From the IMG/VR virus record IMGVR_UViG_2660238423_000035: a DNA stretch of 41,368 nucleotides. One strand, given 5' to 3'. The position numbers and the translations under genes are program-made. Positions within the stretch are counted from its first letter, which is position 1; the number at the start of each line of letters is the position of its first letter. The notes under the pieces are model-generated. The model saw nothing but the letters and a program-made list of their open reading frames with translations, was not told the origin of the DNA and ran no database searches. Positions 1-37,284 of the stretch are shown piece after piece. This DNA comes from a virus. Its lineage: Duplodnaviria; Heunggongvirae; Uroviricota; Caudoviricetes.

Positions 1-555
1 TCATTTATCTCCCACCGGAAACCTCTTATACAAAGTCGATATGCCAACATCATAGATGATCGCTACCTTCAGGCGAGGAACTCCTGATGCAATTAATCGC
101 CCGGCCTGCGCCCATTGTTCTGGTGTAAGTTTGGGACGACGTCCACCAATTCGTCCCTGTGCGCGAGCAGCCTCCAGTCCAGCTTTTGTTCGTTCAACAA
201 TCAGTTCTCGTTCCATTTCAGCCAGGGCCCCCATCACATGAAAGAAAAAACGCCCCATCGGTGTGCTGGTATCAATAGCATCCGTCAGGCTGCGAAAATT
301 AACGCCACGTTCGCGCAACTCCTCAACCAGAATGACCAGATGCCGCATACTACGCCCCAGCCGATCCAGCTTCCAGACAACCAGAGTGTCACCTGCCGAT
401 AATGTCCTGAGCAGTTTTTTCAGCCCCGGCCTTTCGGACTTTGTACCGCTTATCTTGTCTTCAAAAATCAGCTCGCATCCTGCACAGTTCAGCGCATTAC
501 GTTGTAGATCTGTGTTCTGGTCATTTGTTGACACACGTACATAGCCAATAAGCAT
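1..555 (-). CDS. Serine DNA invertase, Gin/Pin/Hin/Cin family (tail-fibre host-range switch)
   Basis: Translation from internal Met MLIGYVRVSTNDQNTDLQRNAL... (184 aa) is near-identical in pattern to Gin/Pin (catalytic Ser in YVRVST, C-terminal HTH); ORF track extends 12 codons upstream to 591. Confidence 0.9.
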   Translation of the reverse strand: MLIGYVRVSTNDQNTDLQRNALNCAGCELIFEDKISGTKSERPGLKKLLRTLSAGDTLVVWKLDRLGRSMRHLVILVEELRERGVNFRSLTDAIDTSTPMGRFFFHVMGALAEMERELIVERTKAGLEAARAQGRIGGRRPKLTPEQWAQAGRLIASGVPRLKVAIIYDVGISTLYKRFPVGDK

Positions 556-581
556 GGTAGATCTCCCTGACAAAAGCAGGA

Positions 582-1133
582 ATGATGCCATTTGCTCGTT
601 ATTTCTGCATTTTCATAAACGTTGGTTTAGGAGAAGGCTCAGCATTGCCTGTTGGCGTACCTGTTCCGTGGCCCTCAGCCACTCCGCCAACAGGCTGGCT
701 AAAATGCAACGGAGCAGCTTTTTCTGCTGAAGAATACCCGGAACTGGCAAAGGCTTACCCGACAAATAAATTGCCTGATTTACGTGGTGAGTTTATTCGT
801 GGCTGGGATGACGGACGTGGTATGGATACGGGGAGGGCAATATTATCAGCTCAGGGCGATGCCATACGTAATATCTATGGTGAGTTCAGAACTGTAAACA
901 CTGAAAATTATTCAATATGGGAAACAGTAGGCTCGTTTAAGGGGGCCATAGTGCCATTGAGTCCCTCTACAAACAATAGTTATTTCTCCTTAACCAGAAG
1001 TATGGTGACAGAAAGAGCAGACGGCGCTGTTTACCCAAAAGTGATTGGCCTTGATGCTTCAAGAATTGTTCCAACTGCAAACGAAAACCGTCCTCGTAAC
1101 ATTGCCTTTAATTATATCGTGAGGGCTGCCTGA
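582..1133 (+). CDS. Alternative tail-fibre C-terminal (receptor-binding) domain, currently in silent orientation with no constant N-terminus attached
   Basis: PVGVPVPWPSATPPTGWLKCNGAAFSAEEYPELAKAYP ... NIAFNYIVRAA matches the conserved C-terminal collar/tip motifs of enterobacterial side tail fibres; reading frame runs through the crossover site. Confidence 0.75.
   Translation: MMPFARYFCIFINVGLGEGSALPVGVPVPWPSATPPTGWLKCNGAAFSAEEYPELAKAYPTNKLPDLRGEFIRGWDDGRGMDTGRAILSAQGDAIRNIYGEFRTVNTENYSIWETVGSFKGAIVPLSPSTNNSYFSLTRSMVTERADGAVYPKVIGLDASRIVPTANENRPRNIAFNYIVRAA
610..635. other. Invertase crossover site (gix/pix-like), right end of invertible segment
   Basis: 26-bp sequence TTTTCATAAACG-TT-GGTTTAGGAGAA, imperfect inverted half-sites around a central dinucleotide as in gix/hix sites; inverted partner at 2221-2246. 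Confidence 0.7.
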
Positions 1134-3251: not shown

Positions 3252-4447
3252 GACTCCACCGTTATAACGATATTTTCCGGGGTACAGGACGCAGATTCGT
3301 TGTATCTGATATCAATGTTTGATGACGACAAAGCCCCCGGAGATTTCCCAATCGTCAGTTCCTGAATATCGTAATAGCGTGCATTCCCGCCACTCACCAC
3401 GCCAAGATTCGCCGGTGAGTAAATGCGACTTAAAAGGACCGAATCACCAATCATCAGACTATTGATATAGTCGGAAATAGCCTGCTGGATCTGCTGCCCT
3501 ATCTGTGAGGTATAACCCGTAAAAACTTTTAATTTAATCCGGGCATAAACAGGCACATCACTGGAACGCGAGAATTTGATTACATGGGGATTGCCGTATT
3601 TATCCGGAACCGTAACGGATGTTGTACCGTGAGTGGCTGTCCCCTGGCCTTTATTCCCTCTGATAGCCTGAGCAATATCCATCACATCACCGCCATCCAC
3701 AACTACAGCAACAGAGTGTGGCGGTAACCCGTTACCGTCCTCCGAACCAGTATCGTTTTCATAGAGTTTGTGGCGGGTTACACCGGTAACATTAGAAACA
3801 GCACCATCCAGTGCTTCAAATGGGGTTATTGATGGCAACGCAACACTTTGCGACTGGCGGATACGTAACTCCGCATCAGTTTCTGCCGGAGAGCCAACAG
3901 TAGCCGCAGCAGGATTAGTTACCGAAACCCAGCCACGGGTTGGCGTATTAATTTCAGTGATAGTTCCAGCCAGCGCCGCCACTGCACCACTGACGGAACA
4001 TGTTGCGGTCGCCATCACTGTACCATCCACGCCGACCACCACTGAAGCAGGCAAACGCCATATCACACTATTACTGTCTTTCACGCTGCCATTAATGATG
4101 GTTGTTCCGGCAGTTCCTGTAAGAAGCAAATCAACCGTAGAATTCGTCGCGCCTTTACGTGAAATACCATTTATTTTCACGTTACTGGTCAGTGCGGCCC
4201 CATAGCCGGTTGCCGGTGAAAAACAGTTGTAGACAGTTATCGCAGTATTATTGGCATCATGAATCGCCAGCGCCATCAGAGCCACCATCTGGCCGTCTTT
4301 ACTATCCGGTTCGAGGTAGGCATCACTGCCATAAATCTGCTGAAAATAGCTAATCAGGGTGCTGAGTATCGTCTGATAATCAGGCGCACTGATCCCCTCC
4401 GCGGTTACCTTTGCAGATAAACCGAGAGAATCAAGGTTCAGAGCCAT
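3248..4447 (-). CDS. Baseplate J-like protein (Mu gp47 family)
   Basis: 399 aa; position and size; start overlaps upstream stop. Confidence 0.7.
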   Translation of the reverse strand: MALNLDSLGLSAKVTAEGISAPDYQTILSTLISYFQQIYGSDAYLEPDSKDGQMVALMALAIHDANNTAITVYNCFSPATGYGAALTSNVKINGISRKGATNSTVDLLLTGTAGTTIINGSVKDSNSVIWRLPASVVVGVDGTVMATATCSVSGAVAALAGTITEINTPTRGWVSVTNPAAATVGSPAETDAELRIRQSQSVALPSITPFEALDGAVSNVTGVTRHKLYENDTGSEDGNGLPPHSVAVVVDGGDVMDIAQAIRGNKGQGTATHGTTSVTVPDKYGNPHVIKFSRSSDVPVYARIKLKVFTGYTSQIGQQIQQAISDYINSLMIGDSVLLSRIYSPANLGVVSGGNARYYDIQELTIGKSPGALSSSNIDIRYNESASCTPENIVITVES

Positions 4448-4800
4448 TACGCCTCCGATTTAACAGTCGTTATTCCATAGAGAGTGTCGATTTCAGCGGA
4501 AAACATGACACGTCGGGTCGTGGTATCCACCGTCGTATTGAAAGAGAGGATTGATTTAACGCCCCGCGTTTCGAGGATGCGCTTACGGATCGCCAGGTTG
4601 TAGGTTTCCGGCTTCTGCTTACCGAGCACAGACTGGATCCACGGGGTCCCTTCGGTGGTGTCGAGAAACCATTGCCCATACCACAATTCAAATCGCGTTT
4701 TTACCGCCTGCGCCACGGCCTCCGGTGAGTTAATCAGCCAGGTGTCATCACCGCTGCCAAAGGTGTAATCGCCATCGGCGTCTTCACGTCTGTATCGCAT
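4447..4800 (-). CDS. Baseplate protein (Mu gp46-like)
   Basis: 117 aa, between spike V-like and J-like genes, translationally coupled. Confidence 0.5.
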   Translation of the reverse strand: MRYRREDADGDYTFGSGDDTWLINSPEAVAQAVKTRFELWYGQWFLDTTEGTPWIQSVLGKQKPETYNLAIRKRILETRGVKSILSFNTTVDTTTRRVMFSAEIDTLYGITTVKSEA

Positions 4801-5552
4801 CAGTTTACTCCGTCGGTATTGCTTCCACCGCGCTGAACACCACCATGAGTGTGCGTATCATCGATTGGCTTGCCGTTAGCCTTCACGCTACCCAAAAACT
4901 CAACAGCACCAGTGATTTTTGAAGCCACACCAGAAACAACAGACCCCACCATGCCCCCCATCCAGGTTAACAGGCCATGAATGGTTACTTTCTCAGAAAA
5001 ATCAGCCAGGGGGGCAACCACATCAAGCCCCCCCGGAGCGACAATTTTAATTTTCCGGGTATCAGGATTAAGCTCAAAATAGGTGCTGCCGTCGTCACTA
5101 CGCAACTGTGTGGCACTGGTATTAATACCGCTAATCTTCCTTGCCTGCGACTGGGGACCGACAATACAAAACGCATCCGATAAATCATGCATTCGATCAT
5201 CGACCGACTCCTGTATCCCGCCACTCTGCCACCAGAAATCAATACAACGATCGGCAAAAATCACCAAACATTCATCACCGGCTTTAACTGGGAACGTTAG
5301 CGTGCATCCTCCGCCGCGCGGGAATACCACTGGCACATCCACCAGCAAGGGTAATATCGTCGACTGGTTGATTCCATTTGAGTCCGGCTCATAGCCTTTA
5401 ATCGCTGGTTGAACAACTACCGTTACCGTGTCCGGATCAAATGACTGGACGATGCCAGGCATAGAAACGCGCAGCGTCGACATGACAGAACCAGCAAGTC
5501 TTACATCGGCCTGTTCTTTGCTACCAAGTTGAGCGCTTAAAGAAACGGGCAT
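4800..5552 (-). CDS. Baseplate spike/assembly protein V (Mu gp45-like)
   Basis: 250 aa; motifs ...GIVQSFDP...PLLVDVPVVFP...GDECLVIFADR... typical of gpV family; GGAG RBS 8 nt upstream. Confidence 0.7.
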   Translation of the reverse strand: MPVSLSAQLGSKEQADVRLAGSVMSTLRVSMPGIVQSFDPDTVTVVVQPAIKGYEPDSNGINQSTILPLLVDVPVVFPRGGGCTLTFPVKAGDECLVIFADRCIDFWWQSGGIQESVDDRMHDLSDAFCIVGPQSQARKISGINTSATQLRSDDGSTYFELNPDTRKIKIVAPGGLDVVAPLADFSEKVTIHGLLTWMGGMVGSVVSGVASKITGAVEFLGSVKANGKPIDDTHTHGGVQRGGSNTDGVN

Positions 5553-5560
5553 TCATATGT

Positions 5561-5596
5561 CTCCAAAAAGCAAAAAACCCGCTCGAAGGCGGGTTT
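5561..5596 (-). terminator. Intrinsic terminator immediately after the 126-aa cargo gene
   Basis: Minus-strand hairpin AAACCCGC-CTTCGA-GCGGGTTT followed by TTTGCTTTTTGG; lies 25 nt after the stop at 5622 and abuts the RBS of gene V. Confidence 0.6.
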
Positions 5597-5621
5597 AATG
5601 TGGCTAATGTTCTTTCCATGG

Positions 5622-6002
5622 CTATGGAAGCAATTCAAAGACCGCTTTAGCATTCGCTATCGCTGTGGCTTTATCCGTGTTATTGATAGTCATGTGTAAC
5701 TTATAATCAGCCTTTGTTCTGAGCTGCTTTGACAAACTAAGTAACCCTGCAATTTCAAGCTGCGCATCATGACTTATTCCGTTATTTAAGTCACTGTACG
5801 CCCCATTATTCAGACCACTGATCAAACGGGCGTGTACACCGCCATTTACTTTGGGAAGCGGCAAATTCAAAGCAGTCACTTTTTCATTAACATGTAAATA
5901 GCTGGAATAATACGCCCTGCTAACAGCATTTCGATTAAGCATTTCATCAGAAACAGGTGCATCAGAAGCCATGGCAAGAAAATCCCTTGGTGTTACTGGC
6001 AT
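5622..6002 (-). CDS. Hypothetical protein (126 aa), cargo gene inside tail operon
   Basis: ORF with 10-nt overlap to upstream 266-aa ORF; no structural-protein features; lower GC than flanking tail genes by eye. Confidence 0.6.
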   Translation of the reverse strand: MPVTPRDFLAMASDAPVSDEMLNRNAVSRAYYSSYLHVNEKVTALNLPLPKVNGGVHARLISGLNNGAYSDLNNGISHDAQLEIAGLLSLSKQLRTKADYKLHMTINNTDKATAIANAKAVFELLP

Positions 6003-6793
6003 TGCAACATGTCCTCTTTATTATGAGCGACATAAACGCCTCCTACACTCCAGTCAGTTAATCCAGAACGCACGCGAGCTGAAATAAGCTCAACATTCAT
6101 GGCTGCGCATGTTGCTGCATCAGCATTGTTTACATACATTTCAAAAATAAGCTCTGGATCTTCACCGTCCTCAGTAACATCAAGCAGACGGACTGCAGAG
6201 TTCAGTTTTTGCACCAAATCCAGTTTTTCATACATCAAAGCTGAGATATTTTTAATCACATCCTCTTTGTTGTACCGACTGGCTATATTTGCATACTCCA
6301 GACTCCGCAACATATCTGACTCCCGGTCTTGCTCTATGAATTTCTCATACATTTCTGTACGCAAAAGGAACTCGCGCATTTCCAGAAAGCATGAAAAATC
6401 CGCAACTGAAGATGAATAGTAATATGCGTCACAAGCCAAAATTGGGCTACTGGTAGCATCGAATCCACGCTTAGCCACATTTAAAGCCTCGACTGCTCCA
6501 CTGCACCAGAACAAACCCAGATTATAGTTCCTCCATGCGACAGTATCTGTAGGTAGATATCTCAACATTTCTTCCGCATAATATTTACCGCGCTCGATAT
6601 CTCCTAGGGTGAAGTAGAAAAAGGATAATGCAGAGCATTTTAGCCCCGGGTCCTGAATCTCTTCGATCTGCTTAGCAGTTCGTTCTTTAACAAAAACGGT
6701 AATATCCTGCTCAAAACACAAGTAAGGTCGCAGGGTCATAACAACCCGATTAACTGTTTTAATATCCCTGGATTTTTGTGTTTTTGGTTGCAT
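5993..6793 (-). CDS. Hypothetical protein (266 aa), cargo gene inside tail operon
   Basis: ORF preceded by 89-bp gap; helical/repeat-like composition, no nucleotide-binding or catalytic motifs recognised. Confidence 0.6.
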   Translation of the reverse strand: MQPKTQKSRDIKTVNRVVMTLRPYLCFEQDITVFVKERTAKQIEEIQDPGLKCSALSFFYFTLGDIERGKYYAEEMLRYLPTDTVAWRNYNLGLFWCSGAVEALNVAKRGFDATSSPILACDAYYYSSSVADFSCFLEMREFLLRTEMYEKFIEQDRESDMLRSLEYANIASRYNKEDVIKNISALMYEKLDLVQKLNSAVRLLDVTEDGEDPELIFEMYVNNADAATCAAMNVELISARVRSGLTDWSVGGVYVAHNKEDMLQCQ

Positions 6794-6882
6794 GTTCGAC
6801 GCTAGCTTTCATCTTTGGTCTGGAAATGGTAATACCTACGCAGTTTAACACCAATTGTCTGGTTGTCTAAACAACGTCAAAC

Positions 6883-7218
6883 TCACTTCACCTTCCGGCA
6901 ATCATACGTCCAGAACTCCCGAGGGTCGTCCATATTTTTGCGGATAACTTCAACGTTGAGGATCGGCTTGCCATTTCTGGCCACAAAATCCATCCCTAAC
7001 CAACGCCCATTACCCGGAATCATCCATTGGATGTTCACATTGTCATAATCACCTTCCTGTTTGAGAAAGATGATTTTCTGTGTCTCCGGTTTCTGTCCAT
7101 TAATCCTTGCAAGTCCGTCTTGCGCTTTCCAGTTGATCGTAAATGGTCCGCAACCGGTATCAGCAAAGGAAATGAAGGAGATACAGACAAGTAAAACTGT
7201 CAACAATGGTCTTTTCAT
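6883..7218 (-). CDS. Small secreted/periplasmic protein (111 aa) with N-terminal signal peptide
   Basis: MKRPLLTVLLVCISFISFA hydrophobic signal followed by DTGC...; start overlaps stop of upstream tail gene (ATGA). Confidence 0.6.
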   Translation of the reverse strand: MKRPLLTVLLVCISFISFADTGCGPFTINWKAQDGLARINGQKPETQKIIFLKQEGDYDNVNIQWMIPGNGRWLGMDFVARNGKPILNVEVIRKNMDDPREFWTYDCRKVK

Positions 7219-8246
7219 GTGTATTTCGCCGCATCAATCCCTTTCGAGTTAAGCAATTCTTTGCCACCTTTAGCCAGGCAAAGCAGGTCCATATACCACG
7301 CCTGCCCTCGGGTGTCGCCAGTATAATCAATGCTGCCCACAATGTAATCACCGTCAGTATTAATACTGGCAGGCTGTGACATGCCTGGCAGACCGTTAAC
7401 GTAGAGATTACCGTCGCTTTCAGACTCATCCAGTCGTGCTGGCGATTTCGCTACCTGGTCATTACTCAAAGAGGCACGGTATACGGATGCCTGATCCAGA
7501 CGAATAAGTCCACCCAGCTTAATATTTGGATTAATCAGACATCTGACATTTACGCCAGCTCCCATCGTCTGCTGTGGCATACCGATAAGCCCGGTGTTAG
7601 CATTCAACACCGTAGCAACACCAATATATTTATCTTCAGGAACAATATTTACCAGATTATTTTCATACCACCAGTTAGCTTTACACTGCCCTGCGATATG
7701 ATTCATCAACCTTGATGTGTTTTGATAAACAACGCGGCCTCGGGGAAATACCGTTTCAGGCATGTCAGGAACTGCGCCGGATTCGATGCCATATGGTTCG
7801 AATGATTTCATACCCAGACTGAAAAGATCGCTGTACTTCCAGCCAGCTGCCACTGTGGTTTTCACACTTGCGTTCAGGTGGCCTTCCCAACTGTCAATAC
7901 ACTGCAATATGATCCAACTGTCTGTGGCATTATCTTTACCAGTGACAGTAAAACGGATATCTCCATTGAATATCATGCCAACGTTTTCATCAGGATAATT
8001 ACCTGCTGCATCCGGTTGCCCCTTGTATCCGGCAATAACCTGTATACGCGAAAACTCCTTCTGCATAATCCGGTTCTGAGTGGTAGGGGACAGGTTATAA
8101 ACCTTAAAATTCCCAACGAATCCATTAAATATGGTCGCAGGCATTTTCTGAATATTGAAAGTGACTTTAAGCTCAGAAATTTTTATCCCGTCGCCCTTAT
8201 CATCAACAAGCAATAATTCAAAGTGACGCATCCAGTTTTTCGACAT
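7215..8246 (-). CDS. Tail/baseplate hub protein (Mu gp44 / P2 gpD-like, putative)
   Basis: 343 aa from MSKNWMRHF... (start 2 nt after upstream stop); position between tape measure-distal genes and baseplate. Confidence 0.45.
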   Translation of the reverse strand: MSKNWMRHFELLLVDDKGDGIKISELKVTFNIQKMPATIFNGFVGNFKVYNLSPTTQNRIMQKEFSRIQVIAGYKGQPDAAGNYPDENVGMIFNGDIRFTVTGKDNATDSWIILQCIDSWEGHLNASVKTTVAAGWKYSDLFSLGMKSFEPYGIESGAVPDMPETVFPRGRVVYQNTSRLMNHIAGQCKANWWYENNLVNIVPEDKYIGVATVLNANTGLIGMPQQTMGAGVNVRCLINPNIKLGGLIRLDQASVYRASLSNDQVAKSPARLDESESDGNLYVNGLPGMSQPASINTDGDYIVGSIDYTGDTRGQAWYMDLLCLAKGGKELLNSKGIDAAKYT

Positions 8247-8248
8247 TG

Positions 8249-8551
8249 TTACTCCGTGAAAACATAGAGGTGTGAGAGCGTTCCAAGACCGAATTGCGTC
8301 GGACTCTCCTGCCCTGCCACGTCGCAAAGCACCACCAGAGAAAAACCCAGATCCATATATCGATACTGTGCCAGCAGGTCAGCCCCCGTAATCATCGGTA
8401 TACCTGATATAATGGCGGAACCATTGCTGTCAGCAAGATCCAGAACCCAGTACTCTCCTCGCCAGATGACAGACAGGTGATAAACCGAACCGTTAATTGT
8501 GGTGGCAAAAGTCTGATTGTCAGCAACCAGTGGGATTTCTACGGCTTTCAT
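8249..8551 (-). CDS. Tail protein (hypothetical)
   Basis: 100-aa ORF in tail operon, coupled to neighbours. Confidence 0.45.
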   Translation of the reverse strand: MKAVEIPLVADNQTFATTINGSVYHLSVIWRGEYWVLDLADSNGSAIISGIPMITGADLLAQYRYMDLGFSLVVLCDVAGQESPTQFGLGTLSHLYVFTE

Positions 8552-24050: not shown

Positions 24051-24276
24051 TGTTAAATTTGTTAAAAAAGGAAGTTATTTAACATAATGTACGTTATAGG
24101 AACCACACGATCCCCGCTCGCAATAGATTTGCGATGAAAGGCCTATTTAATCAACTTAAGTGGTTCAAAATGACGAAATTCGAGTGAATAAAAGGTGCAT
24201 AAAAAAGGGCAAAAACTGCATAGCGTTTTTTCGCGACGAAAACCCTGTTTTATTAACTTTTACTGAGAATAGAGCA

Positions 24277-24303
24277 TTAAAAAAGGCCCCCTTGCGGGAG
24301 CCT
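24277..24303 (-). terminator. Intrinsic terminator (minus strand), candidate tR'-like terminator downstream of Q
   Basis: Minus-strand GGCUCCC-GCAA-GGGGGCC hairpin (7 bp with one G-U pair, GNRA-type loop) followed by TTTTTT. Confidence 0.6.
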
Positions 24304-24456
24304 CTTCGTGATGAACTGTTTTCAACAGATATCAGGCTAATCGGCTTTTTGGAATTCCACAACTATTTTTTATCTTACCTTGATACCTGAAGCCGTCAGG
24401 TGTTTACGGCAATCCTGAATACCATCTGATTCCCTTACGTGATTGATTACTGGATA

Positions 24457-24879
24457 TTATGCCGCCGGGCAGCTCCTTCGCAAAGTCCTGATAGCCTTAG
24501 GCTTTGACTGAACTGCTTGATCCATTTCCAGAACCACGTCCAGCATAGCCAGGCAGCCGTCGATAAATCCCTCTGCAGCCTGGAGCCTCTTCAGAACTTG
24601 AGTGTGTGATACGCCGAGCTTCACACCCATAGCCCTCACAGGCATCGCCTGGATGTAATGCCACTCAAGGAGCGTACACAGGTACGGATCTTTTTTCTTC
24701 AGGCAGTTCATAGCAGAGCTGATGATCAGACCGTCATTGTCACTGCACTTCAGCCGCCCGGCTTGCGTTGCAGGTAGCAGATTCTTAAATCCAGCGGAAA
24801 CAGGTGGATAGTAGACACTGCAACCTTCGCTCGCAGCCCAGCCCCCCCATCGCTCTAAAACCAGTCGAATATCACGCAT
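24457..24879 (-). CDS. Late-gene antitermination protein Q (phage 82/21-type family)
   Basis: 140 aa; N-terminus MRDIRLVLERWGGWAA... and Cys-rich core match the lambdoid Q antiterminator family pattern; located just upstream of lysis genes. Confidence 0.75.
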   Translation of the reverse strand: MRDIRLVLERWGGWAASEGCSVYYPPVSAGFKNLLPATQAGRLKCSDNDGLIISSAMNCLKKKDPYLCTLLEWHYIQAMPVRAMGVKLGVSHTQVLKRLQAAEGFIDGCLAMLDVVLEMDQAVQSKPKAIRTLRRSCPAA

Positions 24880-24904
24880 AGCTCTGACCTCTACGTTTTG
24901 CTAC

Positions 24905-25195
24905 TTACCGTTCATCTTTCATTTTGAGGTTAGAAAGATGTTTAAGCCGCTGGCAATACGCTTTCCAGTAAGCCTCAGAGTGCATCGGGTGCTCGATATC
25001 GCTATACAGCCATACACAGTCGTCGCGCTGAGTTACCGGCGGTGGCGCCAACACATCTCGAGTGGCCTGCGTTAGTGCTCTTTTGAAGAAAAAAGCCTCC
25101 CCTAAGGGCTGGTAGTCTCTGTTGAATGCTTCCCAAGCCCCCTCAGCTGTTTTGCGGATACCGTAAGGCATACATTGGCGGAATATCTTTGACAT
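24905..25195 (-). CDS. Hypothetical protein (96 aa), nin-region-like position
   Basis: ORF between origin-like repeats and Q. Confidence 0.45.
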   Translation of the reverse strand: MSKIFRQCMPYGIRKTAEGAWEAFNRDYQPLGEAFFFKRALTQATRDVLAPPPVTQRDDCVWLYSDIEHPMHSEAYWKAYCQRLKHLSNLKMKDER

Positions 25196-25244
25196 CGTCG
25201 TATCCTCATTTAGTTATTTGCTAATTTTTTCAAGTTAATTTCCG

Positions 25245-25507
25245 GGTGACGGCTAGGTGACGCGTAATTACATATCCGTCACCTGCTGCAAAGCGCGCCA
25301 TATAAGGCCTGAAGATGTTTTAGGTGACAGGTGACGGTTGATTTTAGTTCTCTATATATAAGCGATCGTATAATACCTAAAATACACACTCTCGCGTATA
25401 TAGTTTTAAATTCTGCCGTCACCTGTCACCTTTAGCACATTTCCCATTGTTTTATATATACTTTTTAAGGTGACGCTTAAGCGTTTTGCCGTCACCTAGC
25501 CGTCACC
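25245..25507. repeat. Iteron array: about ten copies of GGTGAC(G)/(C)GTCACC in both orientations with AT-rich spacers; putative replication origin
   Basis: Copies read at approx. 25245, 25256, 25277, 25323, 25330, 25417, 25425, 25469, 25491, 25502; AT-rich tracts at about 25350-25415 and 25450-25466; directly 3' of the primase-polymerase gene. Confidence 0.55.
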
Positions 25508-25510
25508 TTT

Positions 25511-27772
25511 TTACAATCCAGATTGCAAAATTTCGCAAGATTTATATATTTCGCGCAATTCTTCGTTGCTGAAATCGTTATTTTTTACAAGAATCCAAAT
25601 CCTATATACAAACCCGTCAATTTTTACGCGTACGGGTTCCCGCTTTGTTCTTTCTTTCAAAATGCGAGTAATATGCTTCTGGTTAATTTCTACATCCATT
25701 CCTGCTTCTGCCAGTATTGCGTTAACAATTTGTTGATAAGTCATTGCTGGCACAGGCGGATTATCCAGGATTTCAATAAGAGCAGCCTCCACATCGCTCT
25801 TATTGCTTTCAATCATCAGAAGGCGTTCTTTCGTCTCGGGGGCGCGCTGCCAGTTAAAGCGAGACAGGTCAACGCCCATCAGATACCAGTACACCTGGGC
25901 GATAAAGTCGCTGTCGCTTAGCGCACCGTACAGGCTGGCGTAATGCTCTTCAGTTGCGGCGAAGTCAGGGCCCCCCAGCACAGCGATACGTCGGTCTTCC
26001 TCTGGCAGCGCCAGCGCATCAAAGTGGTTGGTGTAGAACAGAAAGCCGGTGTATATATCCATCGTTTTTTTGCTGCCATATTTGCGGTTCACTTCAAACC
26101 GTGGTTCTGTCAGCACGTCACGGATCTTATCGTTCACCTCATACCGCTTATCATTTTCGCGCACCTCGTCAATGGTGCATAGAAGCGTATTGTACAGATA
26201 GTCATGGAACTGGTTATCGCACAGGATCTTCATGCGAGTACGAGCACAGTTCCACGGACCAAGCACGCGCTCCATTAACTGGCTGACCCATCCTCTGCCC
26301 GTACCATGTGCGGTAGCCACATGCAGAATAGAAATCGGGCATCGACGCTCCGGACGCTGAACCATCCACCCCAGACGGGCGATGAAAAACTCGCGCTGCC
26401 AGGCATCAGGTACCAGATACGCCATATGATTAAGGAACGTGGACACCTTACTTGTATCCGCTGTACGTGGATGCTCAGGCATATAAAATTCGTTTATCTC
26501 AAACCGCCCGTCGAAACGCTCGATAATACGTCCCGCACCGGGCTTATAGCCTGTCGTCTCAGCAATCTTCTTATGCCGATGCTCTATCCACCGTTTGGTT
26601 GCGGGAGTTGGTTGCCCTTTCCCTTCTGGCGGGAACTGGTAAGGCGCCATCAGGTTTTTGAACGACTTCATATCCATCATGCACTGATATGGCGGTCGGC
26701 TAAGATCACATACCTGGTCACCCTCGATGACGTAGATAAAGCGTTCCAGAAAATGAGCTGTCATATCTGTATTAATATCGGTAAATTCAGGCTTATCGCC
26801 ATCTTCAACCACCGTGAGATCTTCGAACAGGGATTGCGTATAGCCGTAGCCTTCCAGCCAGTCGGCATCAGTAAGCCCCGCATCGGTGTTGTGCATGCTT
26901 TTAAAATGTCCCTGTTCAAATCCCCCCGTCCCTTTTGGGAAATACTTAATGGATGTTTCGCTGCAACCGTTGCTGTATTCTGACTCATCCCGAAACGGTT
27001 TCAGATTGCGGGAACCATCAGAGCTGACTGACAGAGTCCACCCGTTCGCGTCAAGCCAGTCGGCGACATCATCTGTCGCGGAAGGATCAACACAGGAAAG
27101 ATCACGCTGACGTCCTGCACCTGCGGTATAGCTGTCTTTCACGGGTAAGTTATCCGCCAGACGCTGCCACAGGCTTTCGAGCTGTTCAGATGTAATTTTC
27201 AGAGGTTCGCCGGGCAGACCGCAGTCCCACTGAATACGTTCGCCTGCCGGATGGGTACCACAAGCCACAAACTGCTGGCCCTTAGCGAGCAGCTCTATTT
27301 GTTTGTTTTCGCCTTCCAGGCGGTGACCACGTTTACGGTAGTCGCCATCAACAGCAATCAGGTACAGGCATTTATGACTGTCAGCCCGCCAGCGACGTGG
27401 CGGAAGTTCCCCCAGGCATGACAGGATAATATTGCGTACGATCTCCTGCATCCCGGCGTCATTGATATCGCAGTCCAGAGCCACCACCCCGTCGCCAGTA
27501 CGAACGCAAATACCGTAATCGGGTTCGTTCGACCACCGGGCAAAATCGTTTTCCGTAACAACATAGTTAGCCCAGTCGGGGATACCAACAACCTTACGTT
27601 GGCCATTGTAGCGACTGGGGGTTTTGCCGAAATTATGAGACAGCTTGCTATTAGGCGACAGTTCTGCACAGGGATTGGACACCACAGGTAAAAGCCTGTC
27701 TGTCATCCCCAACACCAGATCGAAGTGGAACCACTCATCGGGCGTAGCTCCCCATGGTTTGTTATCAGACAT
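25511..27772 (-). CDS. Replication protein with N-terminal primase-polymerase (prim-pol) domain
   Basis: 753 aa; acidic DxD-type motif …GVVALDCDINDAG… in N-terminal region typical of bifunctional primase/polymerase domains; no clear Walker A motif was found in the C-terminal half, so helicase activity is not asserted. Confidence 0.65.
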   Translation of the reverse strand: MSDNKPWGATPDEWFHFDLVLGMTDRLLPVVSNPCAELSPNSKLSHNFGKTPSRYNGQRKVVGIPDWANYVVTENDFARWSNEPDYGICVRTGDGVVALDCDINDAGMQEIVRNIILSCLGELPPRRWRADSHKCLYLIAVDGDYRKRGHRLEGENKQIELLAKGQQFVACGTHPAGERIQWDCGLPGEPLKITSEQLESLWQRLADNLPVKDSYTAGAGRQRDLSCVDPSATDDVADWLDANGWTLSVSSDGSRNLKPFRDESEYSNGCSETSIKYFPKGTGGFEQGHFKSMHNTDAGLTDADWLEGYGYTQSLFEDLTVVEDGDKPEFTDINTDMTAHFLERFIYVIEGDQVCDLSRPPYQCMMDMKSFKNLMAPYQFPPEGKGQPTPATKRWIEHRHKKIAETTGYKPGAGRIIERFDGRFEINEFYMPEHPRTADTSKVSTFLNHMAYLVPDAWQREFFIARLGWMVQRPERRCPISILHVATAHGTGRGWVSQLMERVLGPWNCARTRMKILCDNQFHDYLYNTLLCTIDEVRENDKRYEVNDKIRDVLTEPRFEVNRKYGSKKTMDIYTGFLFYTNHFDALALPEEDRRIAVLGGPDFAATEEHYASLYGALSDSDFIAQVYWYLMGVDLSRFNWQRAPETKERLLMIESNKSDVEAALIEILDNPPVPAMTYQQIVNAILAEAGMDVEINQKHITRILKERTKREPVRVKIDGFVYRIWILVKNNDFSNEELREIYKSCEILQSGL

Positions 27773-27775
27773 GGG

Positions 27776-27976
27776 TTACGCCTTTTGTCTAGCTGTCACT
27801 TCCTGAAAAAGCTTTTCTATCGCACGTACTGTAGAAAAGCGAGGGTCAGAATGAACCCCGGTGAGAAGCCGACTAATAGAAGACTGCTTCACGCCTGCAA
27901 TTTCGGCAATTTGGTTTTGGGTATACCCTGAATCAATCAAGCTTTTGACCATCTCTTGTGGTGTTAGTCCGGACAT
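27776..27976 (-). CDS. Cro-like HTH transcriptional regulator
   Basis: 66 aa, HTH …TQNQIAEIAGVKQSSISRLL…, divergent from cI-like repressor, first gene of the minus-strand early operon. Confidence 0.7.
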   Translation of the reverse strand: MSGLTPQEMVKSLIDSGYTQNQIAEIAGVKQSSISRLLTGVHSDPRFSTVRAIEKLFQEVTARQKA

Positions 27977-28117
27977 ATTTAAGTCTCCACTTTCGTCTAT
28001 AGCGCAAATTTATACGAAAACGGATTATTCAGCAATACGGCAATTCTATATCATCCTGGATTAAAATATCCGATAACGCATAATCACCGTCCCTGTATAC
28101 AACATGGATGAATCCAA
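27977..28117. promoter_or_regulatory. Divergent cI/cro promoter-operator region
   Basis: 140-bp gap between divergent repressor genes; TATAAA -10-like element for the cro direction; palindromic GGATTAAAATATCC element; exact operators not resolved. Confidence 0.5.
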
Positions 28118-28792
28118 ATGATTGATACTACCGATATCCTTTCTCAAAACATCAAGTACCTGATGGACAAAGCCAAGATAAGCTCGATAACTGAGCTGGC
28201 ACGTCGGTTACAACTGAACCAACCAACGCTACACAGGCTGGTATCAGGAGAGGTGAAAGATCCGAAATACGCAACGTTAAAGCAGATCGCCGACTACTTC
28301 CACGTGTCACCAATAGACCTGGCAGAAAGGAGCCTTCAAGAAATGGAGAAAGAGGACGCGACAGGTATAAAAACGTATATTTCTCTTAGGTTTAATAAAG
28401 TACCTGTTTTGGGAAACACTCAGCTAGGCGTTGGAGGACTTTGGAGCGACACCCAATATTCAGTAGGTAGCAGTGATGGTTTCATATACTGGCCGACAAA
28501 GGATGAAGATGCATACGCCCTGAAATGTGTTGGTGATTCAATGATGCCTAGAATCAAAGAGGGTGAGTTCGTAATCGTCGAACCCAACCACGACTACACT
28601 CCTGGTGATGAAGTACTTGTGGTTACCCGGGACGGTGAGGTCATGGTTAAAACCTTCTTGTTCGAACGCGATGGCCTGTTCCATCTAATGTCTGTAAATG
28701 AAGATCATCCACCAGTCAGAGTACCACGCGAAAACATTGAAAAAATCCATTACGTGGCGGGGATCGCCAAATCCGCGCTACGCATGTACTAA
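28118..28792 (+). CDS. CI-like repressor (HTH plus LexA/S24 autopeptidase domain)
   Basis: 224 aa; N-terminal HTH; C-terminal S24 signature …CVGDSMMPRI… (Ser) and …VMVKTF… (Lys). Confidence 0.9.
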   Translation: MIDTTDILSQNIKYLMDKAKISSITELARRLQLNQPTLHRLVSGEVKDPKYATLKQIADYFHVSPIDLAERSLQEMEKEDATGIKTYISLRFNKVPVLGNTQLGVGGLWSDTQYSVGSSDGFIYWPTKDEDAYALKCVGDSMMPRIKEGEFVIVEPNHDYTPGDEVLVVTRDGEVMVKTFLFERDGLFHLMSVNEDHPPVRVPRENIEKIHYVAGIAKSALRMY

Positions 28793-28823
28793 CCTTTACA
28801 GTCTGATAACTTACTTCTGATCA

Positions 28824-28856
28824 AACCGCTCTCCACAAGGGCGGTTTTCTTATTTG
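28824..28856 (+). terminator. Intrinsic terminator after repressor gene
   Basis: AAACCGC…GCGGTTT hairpin followed by TCTTATTT, about 30 nt after cI stop. Confidence 0.5.
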
Positions 28857-28876
28857 CAAAATAATTCATTTTCGTA

Positions 28877-28905
28877 TTGACACAAAATCCCATAACGCAT
28901 ATAAA
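28877..28905 (+). promoter_or_regulatory. Near-consensus sigma70 promoter (plus strand) of unknown target
   Basis: TTGACA - 17 bp - TATAAA read at approx. 28877-28905; downstream transcript would be antisense to the 3' region of the 189-aa gene. Confidence 0.5.
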
Positions 28906-29167
28906 TACGATATCGCATAATTAATGCGTTTTTTAATACCAGCTCTTTAACAAACTGAACCGCGTGACAGGTAAGCCGCAGTACTCCTGGCAAAATGAAA
29001 TGGCACCCGATGGGATCGAGGTAAGCGCCGAGTCCGTATGCGTACGGTAAGCGTAGAGGACAACACCGCGACGAACTGATAAGTCACGCAAGTTGAAACG
29101 CCCCGACGATGGGGCGCTTAGTTCCTTTAACTCTGGGTGGCCGGAAGGGTACCCATGCTTAAAGAAA

Positions 29168-29737
29168 TTACTGGTTGTAAGGATCGTAATCCGTGATTGC
29201 CTTCCCCGGATTTTCATCTTCAGAAGGCAGTCGGGCTTCTAAAGCATTTCGGTTGAACAGATAGGAAGCCCTACAGTACGAACAAACCATATTAACGGCT
29301 CGCCCAAGGCCTGGCTTAGTAACCAGACCTTCCGCTTGCAATATAGATTTTCTCTTTTGCTCGTAGCAATTGGGACAAATATAAACCGGAGATTGGTCAG
29401 CATCTGCAGAAAGCTTGCTGCGATAGACCAGAGGACCCCGCATAGGCTGGTAAAGTTCATAGCTCGCCGCTTCAGCGGCCCAGTTCTCTTGCTTTACTTT
29501 CTCATTTTCCAGTTCAACAATTTTCTCCTTAGCCGCAATCAGCAGCTCCTGAAGCGACATTTGCTGCATCTGAACATCCATTAGCTTATCGAGTAAGATG
29601 TGCGTCTTCTCTTTAACTGCATAGTCGACAGTCAGATTCTGAATCTCTCTTGCTGCTCCAACCGCGCTTTTAATTGCTCCTCCCACGCCGGATAACGATT
29701 CAGTTATCCGGGAAAGAATTCCTTTTTCTTCAGACAT
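29168..29737 (-). CDS. Hypothetical coiled-coil/zinc-ribbon protein (189 aa), cargo gene beside immunity region
   Basis: Opposite strand to flanking cI and early-left operon; predicted coiled coil (…LQELLIAAKEKIVELENEKVKQENW…) and two CxxC pairs (CPNC … CSYC). Confidence 0.6.
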   Translation of the reverse strand: MSEEKGILSRITESLSGVGGAIKSAVGAAREIQNLTVDYAVKEKTHILLDKLMDVQMQQMSLQELLIAAKEKIVELENEKVKQENWAAEAASYELYQPMRGPLVYRSKLSADADQSPVYICPNCYEQKRKSILQAEGLVTKPGLGRAVNMVCSYCRASYLFNRNALEARLPSEDENPGKAITDYDPYNQ

Positions 29738-29876
29738 ATCTAATCTCTCTCAAACTGTAGGGGTGAAGAGATATTAGACGATTTCTCACTGTAGGGGTAC
29801 AAGGAGAACCACCTCGCCTGATGTGGTTAAAAGCAGGCACTCGATGATATCCATGTAATTGCTGTGTGTAGTCTTT

Positions 29877-29903
29877 GCCCGCCGCAAGTGACGGGCTTTT
29901 TTA
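29877..29903 (+). terminator. Intrinsic terminator (plus strand) upstream of early-left operon
   Basis: GCCCG…CGGGC hairpin followed by TTTTTT. Confidence 0.5.
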
Positions 29904-29961
29904 TGTCTGAAAGCGCACTCGCAACAGCGCGCTCCCCGATATGAAAAAAGGAATACAACCG

Positions 29962-30111
29962 ATGAAACCTGAACACATCCATCGACTGACGGGGCGCGAT
30001 GTTCTCCGTTATCGCCGTAAAAACTTCGATTTGATGACCGGTCTGGCCGTTGCCACTGCGCTCGGTCTGATCATCACTTTCATTCTCCTTGTAGCGAGGA
30101 CCACAGTATGA
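29962..30111 (+). CDS. Small membrane protein (49 aa; 56 aa if started at 29941), not in the ORF track
   Basis: ATG with AGGA RBS; C-terminal hydrophobic helix …LMTGLAVATALGLIITFILLVA…; stop overlaps start of the 300-aa gene (ATGA). Confidence 0.4.
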   Translation: MKPEHIHRLTGRDVLRYRRKNFDLMTGLAVATALGLIITFILLVARTTV

Positions 30112-31010
30112 GTTTAGAAACCAGTCTCGAACTTAATAATCAACTTCTGGCACAACATAATGCGCTGCTTGAACGTCTTATCCGCACAATGGCATCAGGC
30201 ATTGTTATGCATCCTGACACGATTTCACGAGTGCAGGAATGTCGGGATACAGCAACTGAAACTGAAAATATGTCAGCGGCAATGACACTGGATGATCTGG
30301 AGTTCAGCGACGTTATCGCACTGGCTGGTTTCTACCCGGTAGCCACCCCTATCACAGAAGACATGCTGCAACGTGCTGTTGCCTACCGTGATGCTGAAGG
30401 CGATAAACGAGTTGTTCAGATTGATGCTCTCGACAGCGCATTGCAGGGCGTCAAACGAGCCAGGGCGCTGCTTAAACCTGCTCTCCTGGACCTGTCCCGT
30501 AACATCCTTAAGTTCTGGGACGACCTGCCAACCATCGGCGAGCGACGTGCTTTTGCCGAGCAGCTACTTGATGCACCTGCGGATGGGCGTGATGAAGTTA
30601 AGCCGAAAAAGGCCAGTAACAAGGATGGAGAACGCACGGGGCCGTTTTACGTCAAAAATGTATCCGGCACAGCAGCCAGTGAACTCCACACCTTACGCAA
30701 GTTGAACGAGATGCTGAAAAAAGGCCATATCGAGATCAACCGTGTTGAGTACCTTCAGCTGCAGGAAGAATTTGCACGCAGAGACGCAGCAAATTCCAGC
30801 CAGAATAATGACGCCAAAGATGACCATACAATTGATTTCGCGGCACTACGCAAACAAGCTGAAGGGTTGATCCTCCAGTTAGCAAAAGGGGGTTACCGGG
30901 CAGAAGCTATTGCAATTCTGGAAAAACAGGGAGCCAGGAAACTTGGTGAAGTAACGGATGAAAATCTCGCTGAAGTAATCACCCTGGCTGAAAAAGCACT
31001 GGAGGGTTAA
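30108..31010 (+). CDS. Hypothetical protein (300 aa), first large gene of early-left operon
   Basis: ORF, coupled to neighbours; no motif recognised. Confidence 0.55.
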
Positions 31011-31012
31011 TC

Positions 31013-32314
31013 ATGCCAGACGTTCATGCACAACTTTCTCCATCATCAGCGCATCGATGGATGCGCTGCCCAGGAAGTCTGGCGCTGGAGGCCACACAAC
31101 CGGATAAAGAAACAACTTTTGCAATCGAGGGCACTGCAGCGCACGCGCTTGCTGAAAAAGTTCTACGAAACAGGCAAAGCCACCCGGAACACTACGCCGG
31201 ATGCAATGTTTCTATGTTTCTCGGCTCATACCCCCTTCGCGAAAATCCTGATGATACATCTGGCCCACAGGTGGATGATGAAATGGTCGAAGCCGTTGGC
31301 CGGTATGTTGATACGGTCTGGACTCTTGCACAGAATAATGAAATATTGGTTGAACAACGTGTTGATTTCTCACATATAACGGGTGTGGAAGAATCTTTCG
31401 GAACTGCCGACGGAATAATCATTGCTGGTAGCGAATTACAAATCCACGACCTGAAATATGGCAAAGGCGTCCGCATTGATGCAGAACAAAATGAGCAACT
31501 ACAACTGTATGCTCTGGGTGCGCTCGAACAATTCAGCATGCTGTATGACTTTGAGACTGTAAGATTATTTATTCACCAGCCAAGGCTCAACCACGTTTCA
31601 GAATGGTCGTTAACCGTACAGGAACTTCAGTCTTTCGGTGAACGGGCACAGAAGGCCGCAACCAGTGCGATCCTTGTTCTCAATATTGCTGAATGCGAAG
31701 GCATTGAGACACTACCTCTGGAAAACTTCATACCTGGAGAAAAACAGTGCCGCTTCTGTAAAGCAAAAGCTATTTGCACTGCCCAGAAAATGCAGCATTT
31801 ACAAACAGCGGCCAGCGATTTTGAAGATCTGACAAAGCCTGTCAGCGAAATAATCACCAATGCCAGCGCACGTGTACCTCTGTTAACCATTGAGCAGCTT
31901 GCGGAGATCTATAGCCAGGCCGACTTTATTGAATCCTGGCTAAAGGCAGTACGAGACCGGGTTCACAATGAACTCAATGCCGGACATCCGGTACCGGGGT
32001 TTAAACTGGTAACAGGAAAACAAGGTAACCGGGCCTGGAGTGATGAAGAGGCAGCTCGCGCACTTCTGAAGGACCAGTTCAGGTACAAAACTGAAGAAGT
32101 ATTCGACTTTAAACTTATTAGCCCCACAAAAGCCGAAAAACTTATCAAAAAGGCCAGTCCGCGCCGCTGGTCAAAAGTCGAGGCACTGATAACACGAGCT
32201 GATGGTAAACCCACCATCGTTCCCGAGTCAGACCCACGCCCCGCACTCAATATCAACCCTGTAAATGATTTCGACGACGTATCCGACGATACGCTAACCG
32301 CAGACCTCATCTGA
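31013..32314 (+). CDS. PD-(D/E)XK nuclease, DUF2800 / Cas4-like
   Basis: 433 aa; N-terminal …[14 protein letters not shown]… and C-terminal Cys cluster …[10 protein letters not shown]… typical of Cas4/AddB-type Fe-S nucleases; …IHDLKYGKG… catalytic-like motif. Confidence 0.7.
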
Positions 32315-32329
32315 TTTAAGGAAATCCCC

Positions 32330-32878
32330 ATGAAACTGAAGCTGAACAATGTTCGTCTGGCCTTCCCGTCTCTGTTTGAAGCTAAAACTGTAAACGGCGA
32401 AGGCGATCCGCGTTTCTCCGCAGTATTTTTAATGTCTCCCAAACACCCACAACTGGAAGAAATCCGTAAAGCTATGAAGCAGGTAGCGAAGGAAAAATGG
32501 GGGGAGAAGTGGGAGTCCATTTATAACCAGCTGGAGAAAAAACTCAATCTGTGCCTGCATGATGGTGATGAAAAAGCAGAGTATGAAGGCTTTCCCGGCA
32601 ATTTCTTCCTGAACGCTGCTAACAAAGCGCGCCCAGCTGTTCTTGATCGCGATCGTTCGCCACTAATTCAGGCTGATGGACGTCCCTATGCAGGGTGCTA
32701 TGTAAACGCCGTTATCGATATCTGGGCACAGGACAATAATTTCGGTAAACGCATTAATGCCTCACTCGGCGGAGTCCAGTTCCTGCGAGACGGCGATGCA
32801 TTCGCTGGCGGCGGAGTGGCAAGCGCTGACGATTTTGACGATATCAGCGAAGGTGCTGATGCTGAAGCACTAATTTAA
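32330..32878 (+). CDS. DUF2815 family ssDNA-binding-like protein
   Basis: 182 aa; position after DUF2800 gene as in PolA-type phage replication modules; acidic C-terminal tail (…DDFDDISEGADAEALI). Confidence 0.6.
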   Translation: MKLKLNNVRLAFPSLFEAKTVNGEGDPRFSAVFLMSPKHPQLEEIRKAMKQVAKEKWGEKWESIYNQLEKKLNLCLHDGDEKAEYEGFPGNFFLNAANKARPAVLDRDRSPLIQADGRPYAGCYVNAVIDIWAQDNNFGKRINASLGGVQFLRDGDAFAGGGVASADDFDDISEGADAEALI

Positions 32879-32929
32879 AAATATTCATCCCCCAGCTACG
32901 TGCTGGGGTATCTCATGAGGGAAAGTATA

Positions 32930-33571
32930 ATGTCACAGCCCGTATTAACTAATCACCTTAAAACTCAAATCATCAATAACGCACTTGAGAAAGCGGGTAT
33001 CCCCAAACGTAAATCAGCACTACGAGCTGCTCGTGTTGAATGGGCCGAACGTGTTCGGCTTGCAGCTATCGGGGGCGTAGAGAAAGAAGCTGAAATATTA
33101 AAAAATATAAAAAAAATAGAAACACTGGTATCAAAAGTCCCCGAAGCATTAAAAAACAATAGTTCTTTAATTCGAAAAGATTGCTGCATATATCTCAATC
33201 TGGCTGGAGCCAGAGCAAACATTTATTTCAATGGCAACTACAGAGGTTATGAATCAGGAGCCCCCGAGCATATTAATAAAATAACACCTGCAGAATTTAC
33301 TCTACTTGGCGAAGATCCTCTGGTAACGGAGTTTTATAGCTTTGATGCTCTCTACACACAAATTAAAAGTGATGAAACCGAAATCATACAGAACGTCAGC
33401 GCGGCTCTAAATAAAGTTCGGACAGTAAAACAATTACTGGATGTATGGCCCGAAGCTAAAGAACTGCTTCCAACAGACGCACCGCCAGTCCCTTTAGCAC
33501 CAGCAGTACATCGAGAGACATTAAATGAAATGATAGGCCTTCCTACCAATACAGTGTCTGATACTCAATAA
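32930..33571 (+). CDS. Hypothetical protein (about 213 aa), AT-rich insert
   Basis: Start chosen at ATG preceded by GAGG RBS (ORF track opens at 32900); visibly AT-rich; no motif recognised. Confidence 0.55.
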   Translation: MSQPVLTNHLKTQIINNALEKAGIPKRKSALRAARVEWAERVRLAAIGGVEKEAEILKNIKKIETLVSKVPEALKNNSSLIRKDCCIYLNLAGARANIYFNGNYRGYESGAPEHINKITPAEFTLLGEDPLVTEFYSFDALYTQIKSDETEIIQNVSAALNKVRTVKQLLDVWPEAKELLPTDAPPVPLAPAVHRETLNEMIGLPTNTVSDTQ

Positions 33572-34254: not shown

Positions 34255-34315
34255 TAGTTGTCTCCTTTAATTCATGATATCTAGCATTTAACCATATACC
34301 ATATGAGGATATTTT

Positions 34316-37155: not shown

Positions 37156-37284
37156 GACAATCATTCTGAGCGATTTTTCTTGAGCTTAGAAGCTTTTAAA
37201 AAACATACTTTTAGTTGTTGTGTTTCTTTTATGCTTACAGGAATTAATTTCCCCTCAATTCCTTCGACACTCATAAATTCAGAG

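Follow-up and report, generated by a model that had tools for sequence, protein, structure and literature searches.

What is a pair of small, low-GC genes doing in the middle of a phage baseplate operon? The question is raised by IMG/VR virus record IMGVR_UViG_2660238423_000035, a caudoviricete sequence of 41,368 nucleotides (nt), here called the window, in which gene A (5993 to 6793; 266 amino acids [aa]) and gene B (5622 to 6002; 126 aa) lie one behind the other on the minus strand among tail genes. A first-pass annotation, made from the letters alone, had read them as cargo inserted in the baseplate operon and as a candidate for an undescribed accessory or defense module. Comparison of sequences indicates that the pair is accessory cargo and not a tail component. 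Gene A encodes a TPR-type protein and gene B a HEPN-fold protein, and we explore below what such a pair might do for a prophage.

Results

A slot that exchanges its cargo

The slot lies between a conserved gene for a 111-aa protein (6883 to 7218), which is outside the cargo and forms the left flank, and the central spike gene on the right (4800 to 5552; Pfam PF18352 at 1.4e-43, plus the PF18946 Apex motif); both are on the minus strand. In a census of 5,426 complete Escherichia coli genomes, the flanks were matched in 285, and the A/B pair was present in only 5 of these. Sister prophages with other cargo have hub, 111-aa, spike, sheath-initiator, and baseplate-J proteins that are 94 to 100% identical to those of the window, the exception being the spike of a YafO-carrying prophage (only 68% identical). 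At least ten types of cargo use the slot, several of them without known function. The commonest occupant is a DUF4282 gene (79 aa); others are a Phd/YefM-Doc pair, a hypothetical gene with a YafO-family toxin, a 151-aa gene on the opposite strand, an antirepressor C-terminal-domain gene with two Arc genes, and an insertion sequence element.

Because near-identical tail operons, with flanking genes 97 to 99% identical, have unrelated cargo at the same slot, we judge the pair to be dispensable. The first-pass annotation had proposed aligning related prophage tail operons, and in such alignments the insert is variably present at exactly this position, with unrelated cargo in its place. The finding that the annotation had named as fatal to its own proposal, A and B in all related tail operons, is contradicted by the low occupancy among the 285 flank-matching genomes.

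The junctions are exact. Similarity to prophages with other cargo ends with the last codon of the 111-aa gene, its stop at 6883, and resumes at 5595 to 5599, where a hairpin begins; the cargo therefore spans approximately 5597 to 6882. We found no direct or inverted repeats flanking the insert, such as would point to transposition or site-specific insertion, and no Rfam family in 4700 to 8400; exchange of cargo is therefore most simply attributed to homologous recombination in the conserved flanks. E. coli BCE049 (L018) lacks A and B, and it retains approximately 39 bp matching window positions 5597 to 5635 (the last 14 nt of B and the spacer before the hairpin), which looks like the scar of a replaced cassette.

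The composition of the insert is unlike that of the neighboring phage genes. Its guanine-plus-cytosine (GC) fraction (0.420 for 5603 to 6882) is the lowest in the structural region, where 1,280-bp windows average 0.515 ± 0.026 with a minimum of 0.446, in line with the AT richness that had been noticed by eye. Across the whole 41-kb window, 2.6% of 1,280-bp windows have GC as low as this. Equally low values occur in the early/replication part, at approximately 32700 to 34600 and 36500 to 38400 (1,280-bp windows starting at 32701 to 33301 and 36501 to 37101). The pair thus has two of the traits expected of a moron: presence or absence among near-identical relatives at a precise junction, and a composition that differs from that of the surrounding phage genes.

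The hotspot is precise, recognizable, and located in a widespread prophage lineage, and it could be mined for accessory and defense genes. The other slot cargo in E. coli prophages L015, L016, L017, L005/L019, and L003 makes a compact hunting ground for such genes.

Gene B encodes a HEPN-fold protein

B is a HEPN-fold protein, a four- to five-helix up-down bundle. A profile built from B and close relatives matches the HEPN proteins of PDB entries 9xbd and 9xbc (9e-4), with the SRAYY stretch, the histidine, and the LRxxxDY stretch aligned. B itself matches the PADLOC profile HEPN_IX (2.3e-6), a weak and partial match that covers approximately 45 profile residues and B residues 18 to 65, and it matches phrog_5176 at 2e-22. 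Six of nine relatives of B, which range down to 22% identity, match HEPN_IX, and two of the nine match the Pfam HEPN family PF05168 (best, 9.3e-5). B alone has no Pfam match, and nothing meaningful in NCBIfam. Its closest structural relatives are HEPN proteins of the UPF0332/COG1895 type, such as AF0298 (PDB 2hsb). The wider B family comprises 529 protein clusters, almost all from Enterobacterales prophages, and the only names given to its members are “hypothetical,” “HEPN,” and “UPF0332.” Literature searches with six protein accessions of the family, and with UPF0332 together with HEPN, returned nothing.

Fourteen positions are invariant across the B family: E20, R24, S28, R29, Y31, Y32, P50, H57, L88, R95, D99, Y100, L102, and I115. 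The first-pass annotation had singled out RTKADYKLH (B residues 95 to 103) as reminiscent of HEPN. The hint at HEPN was borne out, and the R95-x7-H103 motif, which the annotation itself said does not conform to the HEPN signature, was not: the position of H103 is occupied by H, N, S, D, R, E, or T among relatives, and we dropped Rx7H as the motif of B. In a structure model of B, helix 3 begins with H57, and R95 is part of helix 4. H57 and R95/D99/Y100 could, by analogy with the HEPN of type IX retrons, form an alternative active site; alternative His-based HEPN sites were predicted by Anantharaman et al. 2013 (PMC3710099). The invariance of the polar residues R24, R29, H57, R95, D99, and Y100 down to 22% identity suggests catalysis rather than mere binding; we predict that B is an RNase.

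Gene A encodes a rare TPR protein

The first-pass annotation described the 266-aa protein as helical and repeat-like, and it is a TPR protein, with tandem helix-turn-helix repeats that form a TPR superhelix. TPR-type helices occupy residues 6 to 198 and are followed by a small C-terminal beta-beta-alpha-beta domain (residues 200 to 256). No match to A was found in Pfam, NCBIfam, PADLOC (E ≤ 1), or the other family libraries searched, and A has no recognizable DNA-binding domain. A is also rare: a profile search of 1.84 billion representative proteins found only 17 clusters. It diverges faster than B (22 to 59% identity, compared with 36 to 58%), as expected for a sensor or antitoxin that stands beside an effector. 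We propose that A is a partner, inhibitor, or sensor of B.

A and B move together

Both genes were detected in 44 of the fetched loci, and in every one of these A comes immediately before B; the junction ranges from a 20-nt overlap to a 7-nt gap. In the window, the two open reading frames (ORFs) share 10 nt (ATGCCAGTAA), just as first annotated, and the Shine-Dalgarno sequence of B (AAGAGG, at approximately 6013 to 6018), a good match, lies within the 3' end of A. On the coding strand of 4800 to 8400, the only ORFs of at least 100 aa are the tail genes, A, and B.

In three E. coli prophages, the same slot contains very divergent versions of the pair: L015 (250 and 136 aa), L016 (243 and 142 aa), and L017 (257 and 126 aa). 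The B proteins of L015 and L016 match the B profile with hhalign probabilities of 97.5 to 98.5%, and that of L017 is found by BLASTP at 8e-9. For the divergent A proteins, hhalign probabilities are 80 to 92%, and E values with a hidden Markov model of A are 8e-31, 9e-37, and 2e-6. The flanking genes of L015 are 98% identical to those of the window and its B is only 28% identical, which indicates allele replacement and not co-divergence. Across genera, the pair co-diverges with the tail genes (91 to 92% identity in Enterobacter and approximately 58% in Serratia), and it is found in this same slot in prophages of the Enterobacter, Serratia, Yersinia, and Pantoea types.

The pair also occurs in quite different surroundings. 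In lambda-like siphovirus tails it is placed between L and K, between K and I, or after M (M..I), and in Klebsiella phage Chronis it is gp57/gp58. Away from tail genes, it is found between lysis genes and terminase, beside a DUF3800 gene; in an integrase/AIPR/DinI island; and between a helicase-methylase-HNH block and an LPD38 polyvalent protein. A megablast search of the locus against deposited phages gave no match, and there is no reverse transcriptase among the called neighbor genes in the loci that were retrieved as contigs encoding the pair.

B-like genes with an upstream partner of 250 to 294 aa are present in Corticibacter, in a metagenome-assembled genome of Bdellovibrionota, and in phages where the tape measure gene flanks them on one side: Acinetobacter phages, with the distal tail genes on the other side, and Stutzerimonas phage PG1, with a Mu gpN-like gene there instead. 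We compared the partners in the Acinetobacter phages and PG1 with A by hhalign, found no detectable homology, and do not claim that the A family extends to them. In one Acinetobacter prophage (L050), a second, different HEPN gene (4363 to 5004 of that locus; Pfam HEPN-like integron domain, 5e-8) immediately precedes the B-like pair, which suggests that accessory genes of the RNase type form a small cluster there.

A terminator-like hairpin shared by all cargo types

A terminator-like hairpin on the minus strand (5565 to 5596) marks the right-hand boundary of the slot. It reads AAACCCGCC-TTCGAG-CGGGTTT and then TTTGCTTTTT, with the stem at 5596 to 5575 and the T-run at 5574 to 5565, and it stands directly 5' of the GGAGA ribosome-binding site and ATG of the spike gene. 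The local stem and T-run form a textbook-like pattern that is conserved across genera; the 81-nt stretch that contains the hairpin folds no better than shuffled sequences (z = -0.94). The same stem (AACCCGCC...GGCGGGTTTTTT) precedes the spike gene whatever the cargo, be it YafO, DUF4282, Phd/Doc, or the 151-aa gene, and it is also found in same-slot relatives in Serratia, Yersinia, Enterobacter, and Pantoea-type prophages (at the same position in L006, L009, L014, L029, L031, L037, and L040-L044). L044 has a compensatory stem variant, CCTCGCC/GGCGAGG. Since all cargo variants share the terminator and other genera have kept it, we assign it to the phage backbone at the slot and not to the cargo. 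The first-pass annotation was correct about a hairpin and U-tract abutting the spike ribosome-binding site; we dropped its view that the cargo has its own terminator.

At the other end of the cargo, an 89-bp, cargo-specific spacer (6794 to 6882, minus strand) separates the start of A from the stop codon of the 111-aa gene. It contains a promoter-like site (6869 to 6842) with a -35 element TAGACA (6869 to 6864), a 16-nt spacer, and TAAACT, which is part of a TG-extended -10 element (TGTTAAACT) ending at 6842. An imperfect palindrome, TTGTCTGGTTGTCTAAACAA, lies at 6855 to 6874. In Enterobacter, the orthologous spacer is approximately 90% conserved; its extended -10 is intact, its -35 reads TAGGCA, and its palindrome is degraded. 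The gap and palindrome that had been annotated are therefore real in the window, and the palindrome is not conserved in the Enterobacter spacer; we dropped it as an operator. No terminator intervenes between the 111-aa gene and A.

The window encodes a CI-like repressor and a Q antiterminator (24457 to 24879), whose gene precedes the lysis and structural genes and shares their strand; the closest genome carries a tyrosine integrase, and a terminase is present. Given Q, the CI-like repressor, and the tyrosine integrase, the prophage, a temperate myovirus, is lambdoid in its regulation, and the label “Mu-like” that had been attached to it does not hold. In Q-dependent late operons, Q-modified polymerase would read through terminators of this kind. 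The retention of a terminator within the late operon suggests a regulatory or insulating role linked to Q antitermination. The layout fits a moron, as had been proposed, with the correction that the terminator is the slot's and that the promoter-like site, although its TG-extended -10 is conserved, scores at chance level in a scan.

Neighboring genes and other parts of the prophage

The 111-aa protein has an N-terminal signal peptide (MKRPLLTVLLVCISFISFA...), matches phrog_3443 at 6e-42, and is labeled as STY1065/STY2022 family in some records. Its gene sits between the baseplate hub gene and the slot and adjoins the hub gene in nearly all same-slot loci. Hub and spike, which the first-pass annotation took to be normally contiguous, are never so in this lineage because the 111-aa gene intervenes.

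Relative to E. coli EH2252, positions 617 to 2239 of the window are inverted at 99.9% identity, with 20-nt overlaps at 617 to 636 and 2220 to 2239 (crossover repeats). This is an invertible tail-fibre or tail-fibre-assembly segment in the opposite orientation, and it adjoins a Pin-like recombinase ORF (1 to 591, minus strand; pinE in EH2252). A further 9.2 kb (24168 to 33343) is missing from EH2252, where IS1 sits. The genes of this region encode the Q antiterminator, a primase-polymerase/DUF5906 protein, the CI-like S24 repressor, a DUF2800/PD-(D/E)XK nuclease, an Enc34-type single-stranded-DNA-binding protein, and Nmad5; DNA polymerase, VRR-NUC, and helicase genes lie beyond it. The region with Nmad5 (nucleotide modification associated), together with the polymerase, VRR-NUC, and helicase genes, hints at a module for DNA modification or replication.

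Discussion

A proposed latent RNase held by its partner

The cargo pattern, the pairing, and the mobility of A and B largely rule out a structural role and fit a self-contained effector with a faster-evolving partner. We infer a defense or toxin-antitoxin function. In the model that we favor, B would be a latent RNase held by A, and the pair would be a toxin-antitoxin or abortive-infection module; we consider the chances that this model is right or wrong to be about even. The two genes would form a mobile accessory cassette that occupies a recombination hotspot in a temperate myovirus with lambdoid regulation. In the lysogen, it would be transcribed from its own weak promoter, with transcription halted by the backbone terminator; during late transcription of the prophage, Q-modified polymerase would pass that terminator. 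A would be translationally coupled to B, bind it, and keep it inactive. B would act as a dimeric RNase, with a split active site composed of H57 on helix 3 and R95/D99/Y100 on helix 4 in place of Rx4-6H. If A were lost, or if a protein of an infecting phage captured its TPR surface, B would be freed to cut cellular RNA, and growth would stop, to the benefit of the lysogen and its prophage.

Several observations weigh against this model. The UPF0332/AF0298-type HEPN proteins that B most resembles have, to our knowledge, no demonstrated activity. B does not have the canonical Rx4-6H motif, and many HEPN domains that lack it are noncatalytic binding modules (PMC3710099). A 266-aa TPR protein is atypical as an antitoxin. 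The promoter-like site is one of 9 consensus matches, compared with 6.5 ± 2.9 expected by chance. The upstream partners of the B-like genes in Acinetobacter, Corticibacter, Bdellovibrionota, and Stutzerimonas have no detectable homology to A. PADLOC-DB v2.0.0 recognized no catalogued system in the locus; A had no match, and B matched HEPN_IX only, without the other components of that system. This last result also bears on the suggestion that the module is undescribed, since no described defense system was matched apart from the weak hit of B to HEPN_IX.

Strict adjacency has one exception as well, in the Yersinia phage YP3 record (PV092592.1; L052, L053), where A and B are not neighbors. An A homologue (39% identity) lies without B between a gene like the 111-aa gene and the spike gene, and a B homologue (50% identity) is found approximately 7.7 kb from it, counted across the record ends, between plug and baseplate-J genes. 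The record looks like a rearranged genome or one misassembled from two tail modules. Lastly, the model does not explain the strong bias of the pair toward the tail-tip and baseplate clusters of unrelated phages. That preference is in itself a concrete question for phage biology.

Other readings of the pair

A plain addiction module is a possible, though unlikely, alternative. Here B would be the toxin and A the antitoxin, and the pair would stabilize the prophage or persist selfishly, with no sensing or blocking of phages. Antitoxins, however, are usually small proteins with an autoregulatory DNA-binding domain, whereas A is a 266-aa TPR protein in which none can be recognized. The palindrome that might have served as an operator is not conserved, and the extreme allelic diversification seen within one slot fits an arms race better than addiction.

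We hold it slightly less probable that A and B are late-expressed binding proteins serving the phage's own lytic cycle or counter-defense, which would, for example, block host or rival defenses or modulate ejection or the assembly of the tail tip or baseplate. The pair, or a B-like gene with a partner of similar size, recurs in tail-tip/baseplate clusters of at least four tail types, at six positions, and since no terminator separates the 111-aa gene from A, the pair must be part of late transcripts. TPR domains serve as scaffolds for protein binding, and a B without Rx4-6H would fit a noncatalytic HEPN. On the other hand, near-identical tail operons do without the pair, the pair is also found at nontail sites beside the defense-type genes AIPR and DUF3800, and the invariance of R24, R29, H57, R95, D99, and Y100 suggests catalysis.

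We also speculate, a little more doubtfully again, that the pair is a minimal two-protein immune receptor, in which the TPR protein would recognize a tail-tip, baseplate, or other late protein of an infecting phage and free the noncanonical HEPN RNase. The quick turnover of A alleles would then be accounted for, as would the repeated siting of the pair in tail-tip and baseplate operons. If it is true, co-expression of the pair with the prophage's own late genes at a fixed stoichiometry might provide self-immunity.

It is very improbable that the pair is the remnant of a type IX retron, or a stripped-down one, reduced to the HEPN effector and a partner with no reverse transcriptase. HEPN_IX is the sole match of B in the defense-system library (2.3e-6, and six of nine relatives), the layout with His on helix 3 and Arg on helix 4 is common to both, and the alpha-beta-beta-alpha-beta HEPN-binding domains of the type IX partner can be set beside the beta-beta-alpha-beta C terminus of A. 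The HEPN_IX match covers only about 45 profile residues, however. There is no reverse transcriptase near the pair, either in the window or among the called neighbor genes of the loci retrieved as encoding contigs, and no retron RNA or other Rfam family; A is a TPR protein without a PADLOC match and not a winged-helix protein.

That this tail type uses A and B as conserved parts of the virion or of its assembly, as their strand, their place inside the baseplate operon, and their co-divergence with tail genes in Enterobacter, Serratia, and Yersinia relatives might suggest, is hardly credible and largely refuted, given that most of the 285 flank-matching E. coli genomes have DUF4282 or other cargo and 5 have the pair, that L015 combines 98% identical flanks with a 28% identical B, that the pair recurs in siphovirus tails and nonstructural regions, and that its composition is foreign to the operon.

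Comparison with known systems

Under the model of a latent RNase held by A, a close parallel is the type IX retron. The HEPN of Retron-Kva2 has no Rx4-6H and depends on H64 (helix 3) and R122 (helix 4), which meet across the dimer; it cleaves rRNA and tRNA on infection, and the residues of the site are needed for defense (bioRxiv 10.64898/2026.07.14.738597). Its partner, a winged-helix protein of approximately 250 aa, silences the HEPN and wraps it with two alpha-beta-beta-alpha-beta HEPN-binding domains (bioRxiv 10.64898/2026.07.14.738597). B is likewise a small HEPN protein without Rx4-6H, with His on helix 3 and Arg on helix 4, and A is a partner of similar size for which we propose a similar silencing role. 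Unlike the retron, the A/B locus has no reverse transcriptase, no RNA coding for multicopy single-stranded DNA, and no winged-helix partner, the TPR protein standing in its place. The C-terminal beta-beta-alpha-beta domain of A recalls the type IX HEPN-binding domains in its described topology, a lead that may be worth pursuing; if the domains are homologous, the pair could be a free-standing ancestor or derivative of the retron effector module.

HEPN-MNT systems (type VII HepT/MntA) differ in that HepT has an Rx4H motif, which is absent from B, and a minimal nucleotidyltransferase as partner in place of a TPR protein; nothing about the A/B pair points to AMPylation. The LA2681 family and AbiU2 are HEPN families whose genes have been noted to share operons with genes for TPR or Sel1 repeats (Anantharaman et al. 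2013, PMC3710099). The pairing of HEPN with TPR-like repeats in conflict-related contexts is shared with A/B, whereas those families keep Rx4-6H according to the table in PMC3710099, a distinction drawn from their description. When B and eight divergent relatives were searched against Pfam families of the LA2681/AbiU2 type, none matched, and PF05168 HEPN was the only family found, in two of the nine. DS-28 of DefensePredictor, an E. coli HEPN with a hypothetical protein, was considered and set aside: it has a canonical RNSVAH HEPN and the opposite gene order, and its tables contain none of the accessions of the family of this pair.

As a site, the slot resembles the P2/P4 prophage hotspots of antiviral systems (Rousset et al. 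2022, PMC9122126) and the moron loci that harbor Tai systems (He et al. 2024, PMC11364771), in that unrelated small systems of foreign composition, toxin-antitoxin and defense genes among them, are exchanged at a fixed position between conserved phage genes and a terminator insulates the downstream phage genes. It differs from them in lying inside the baseplate operon of another phage lineage and in having a terminator that belongs to the backbone. Homology to Tai was rejected; phi80, which carries TaiEcA, is in the phage collection that was searched by tblastn, and neither A nor B matched it at E ≤ 1e-3.

HEPN-TPR/Sel1 operons and prophage defense hotspots are thus already known, and the A/B pair itself is uncharacterized. 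The pair resembles HEPN toxin systems most, yet it fails the defining features of each named system. If our model is true, it would add an uncharacterized family of small HEPN-based toxin or abortive-infection modules, offer a simple two-protein system in which to study the control of an RNase by a TPR protein, and provide, next to that of the type IX retrons, a second and retron-independent split His/Arg HEPN active site.

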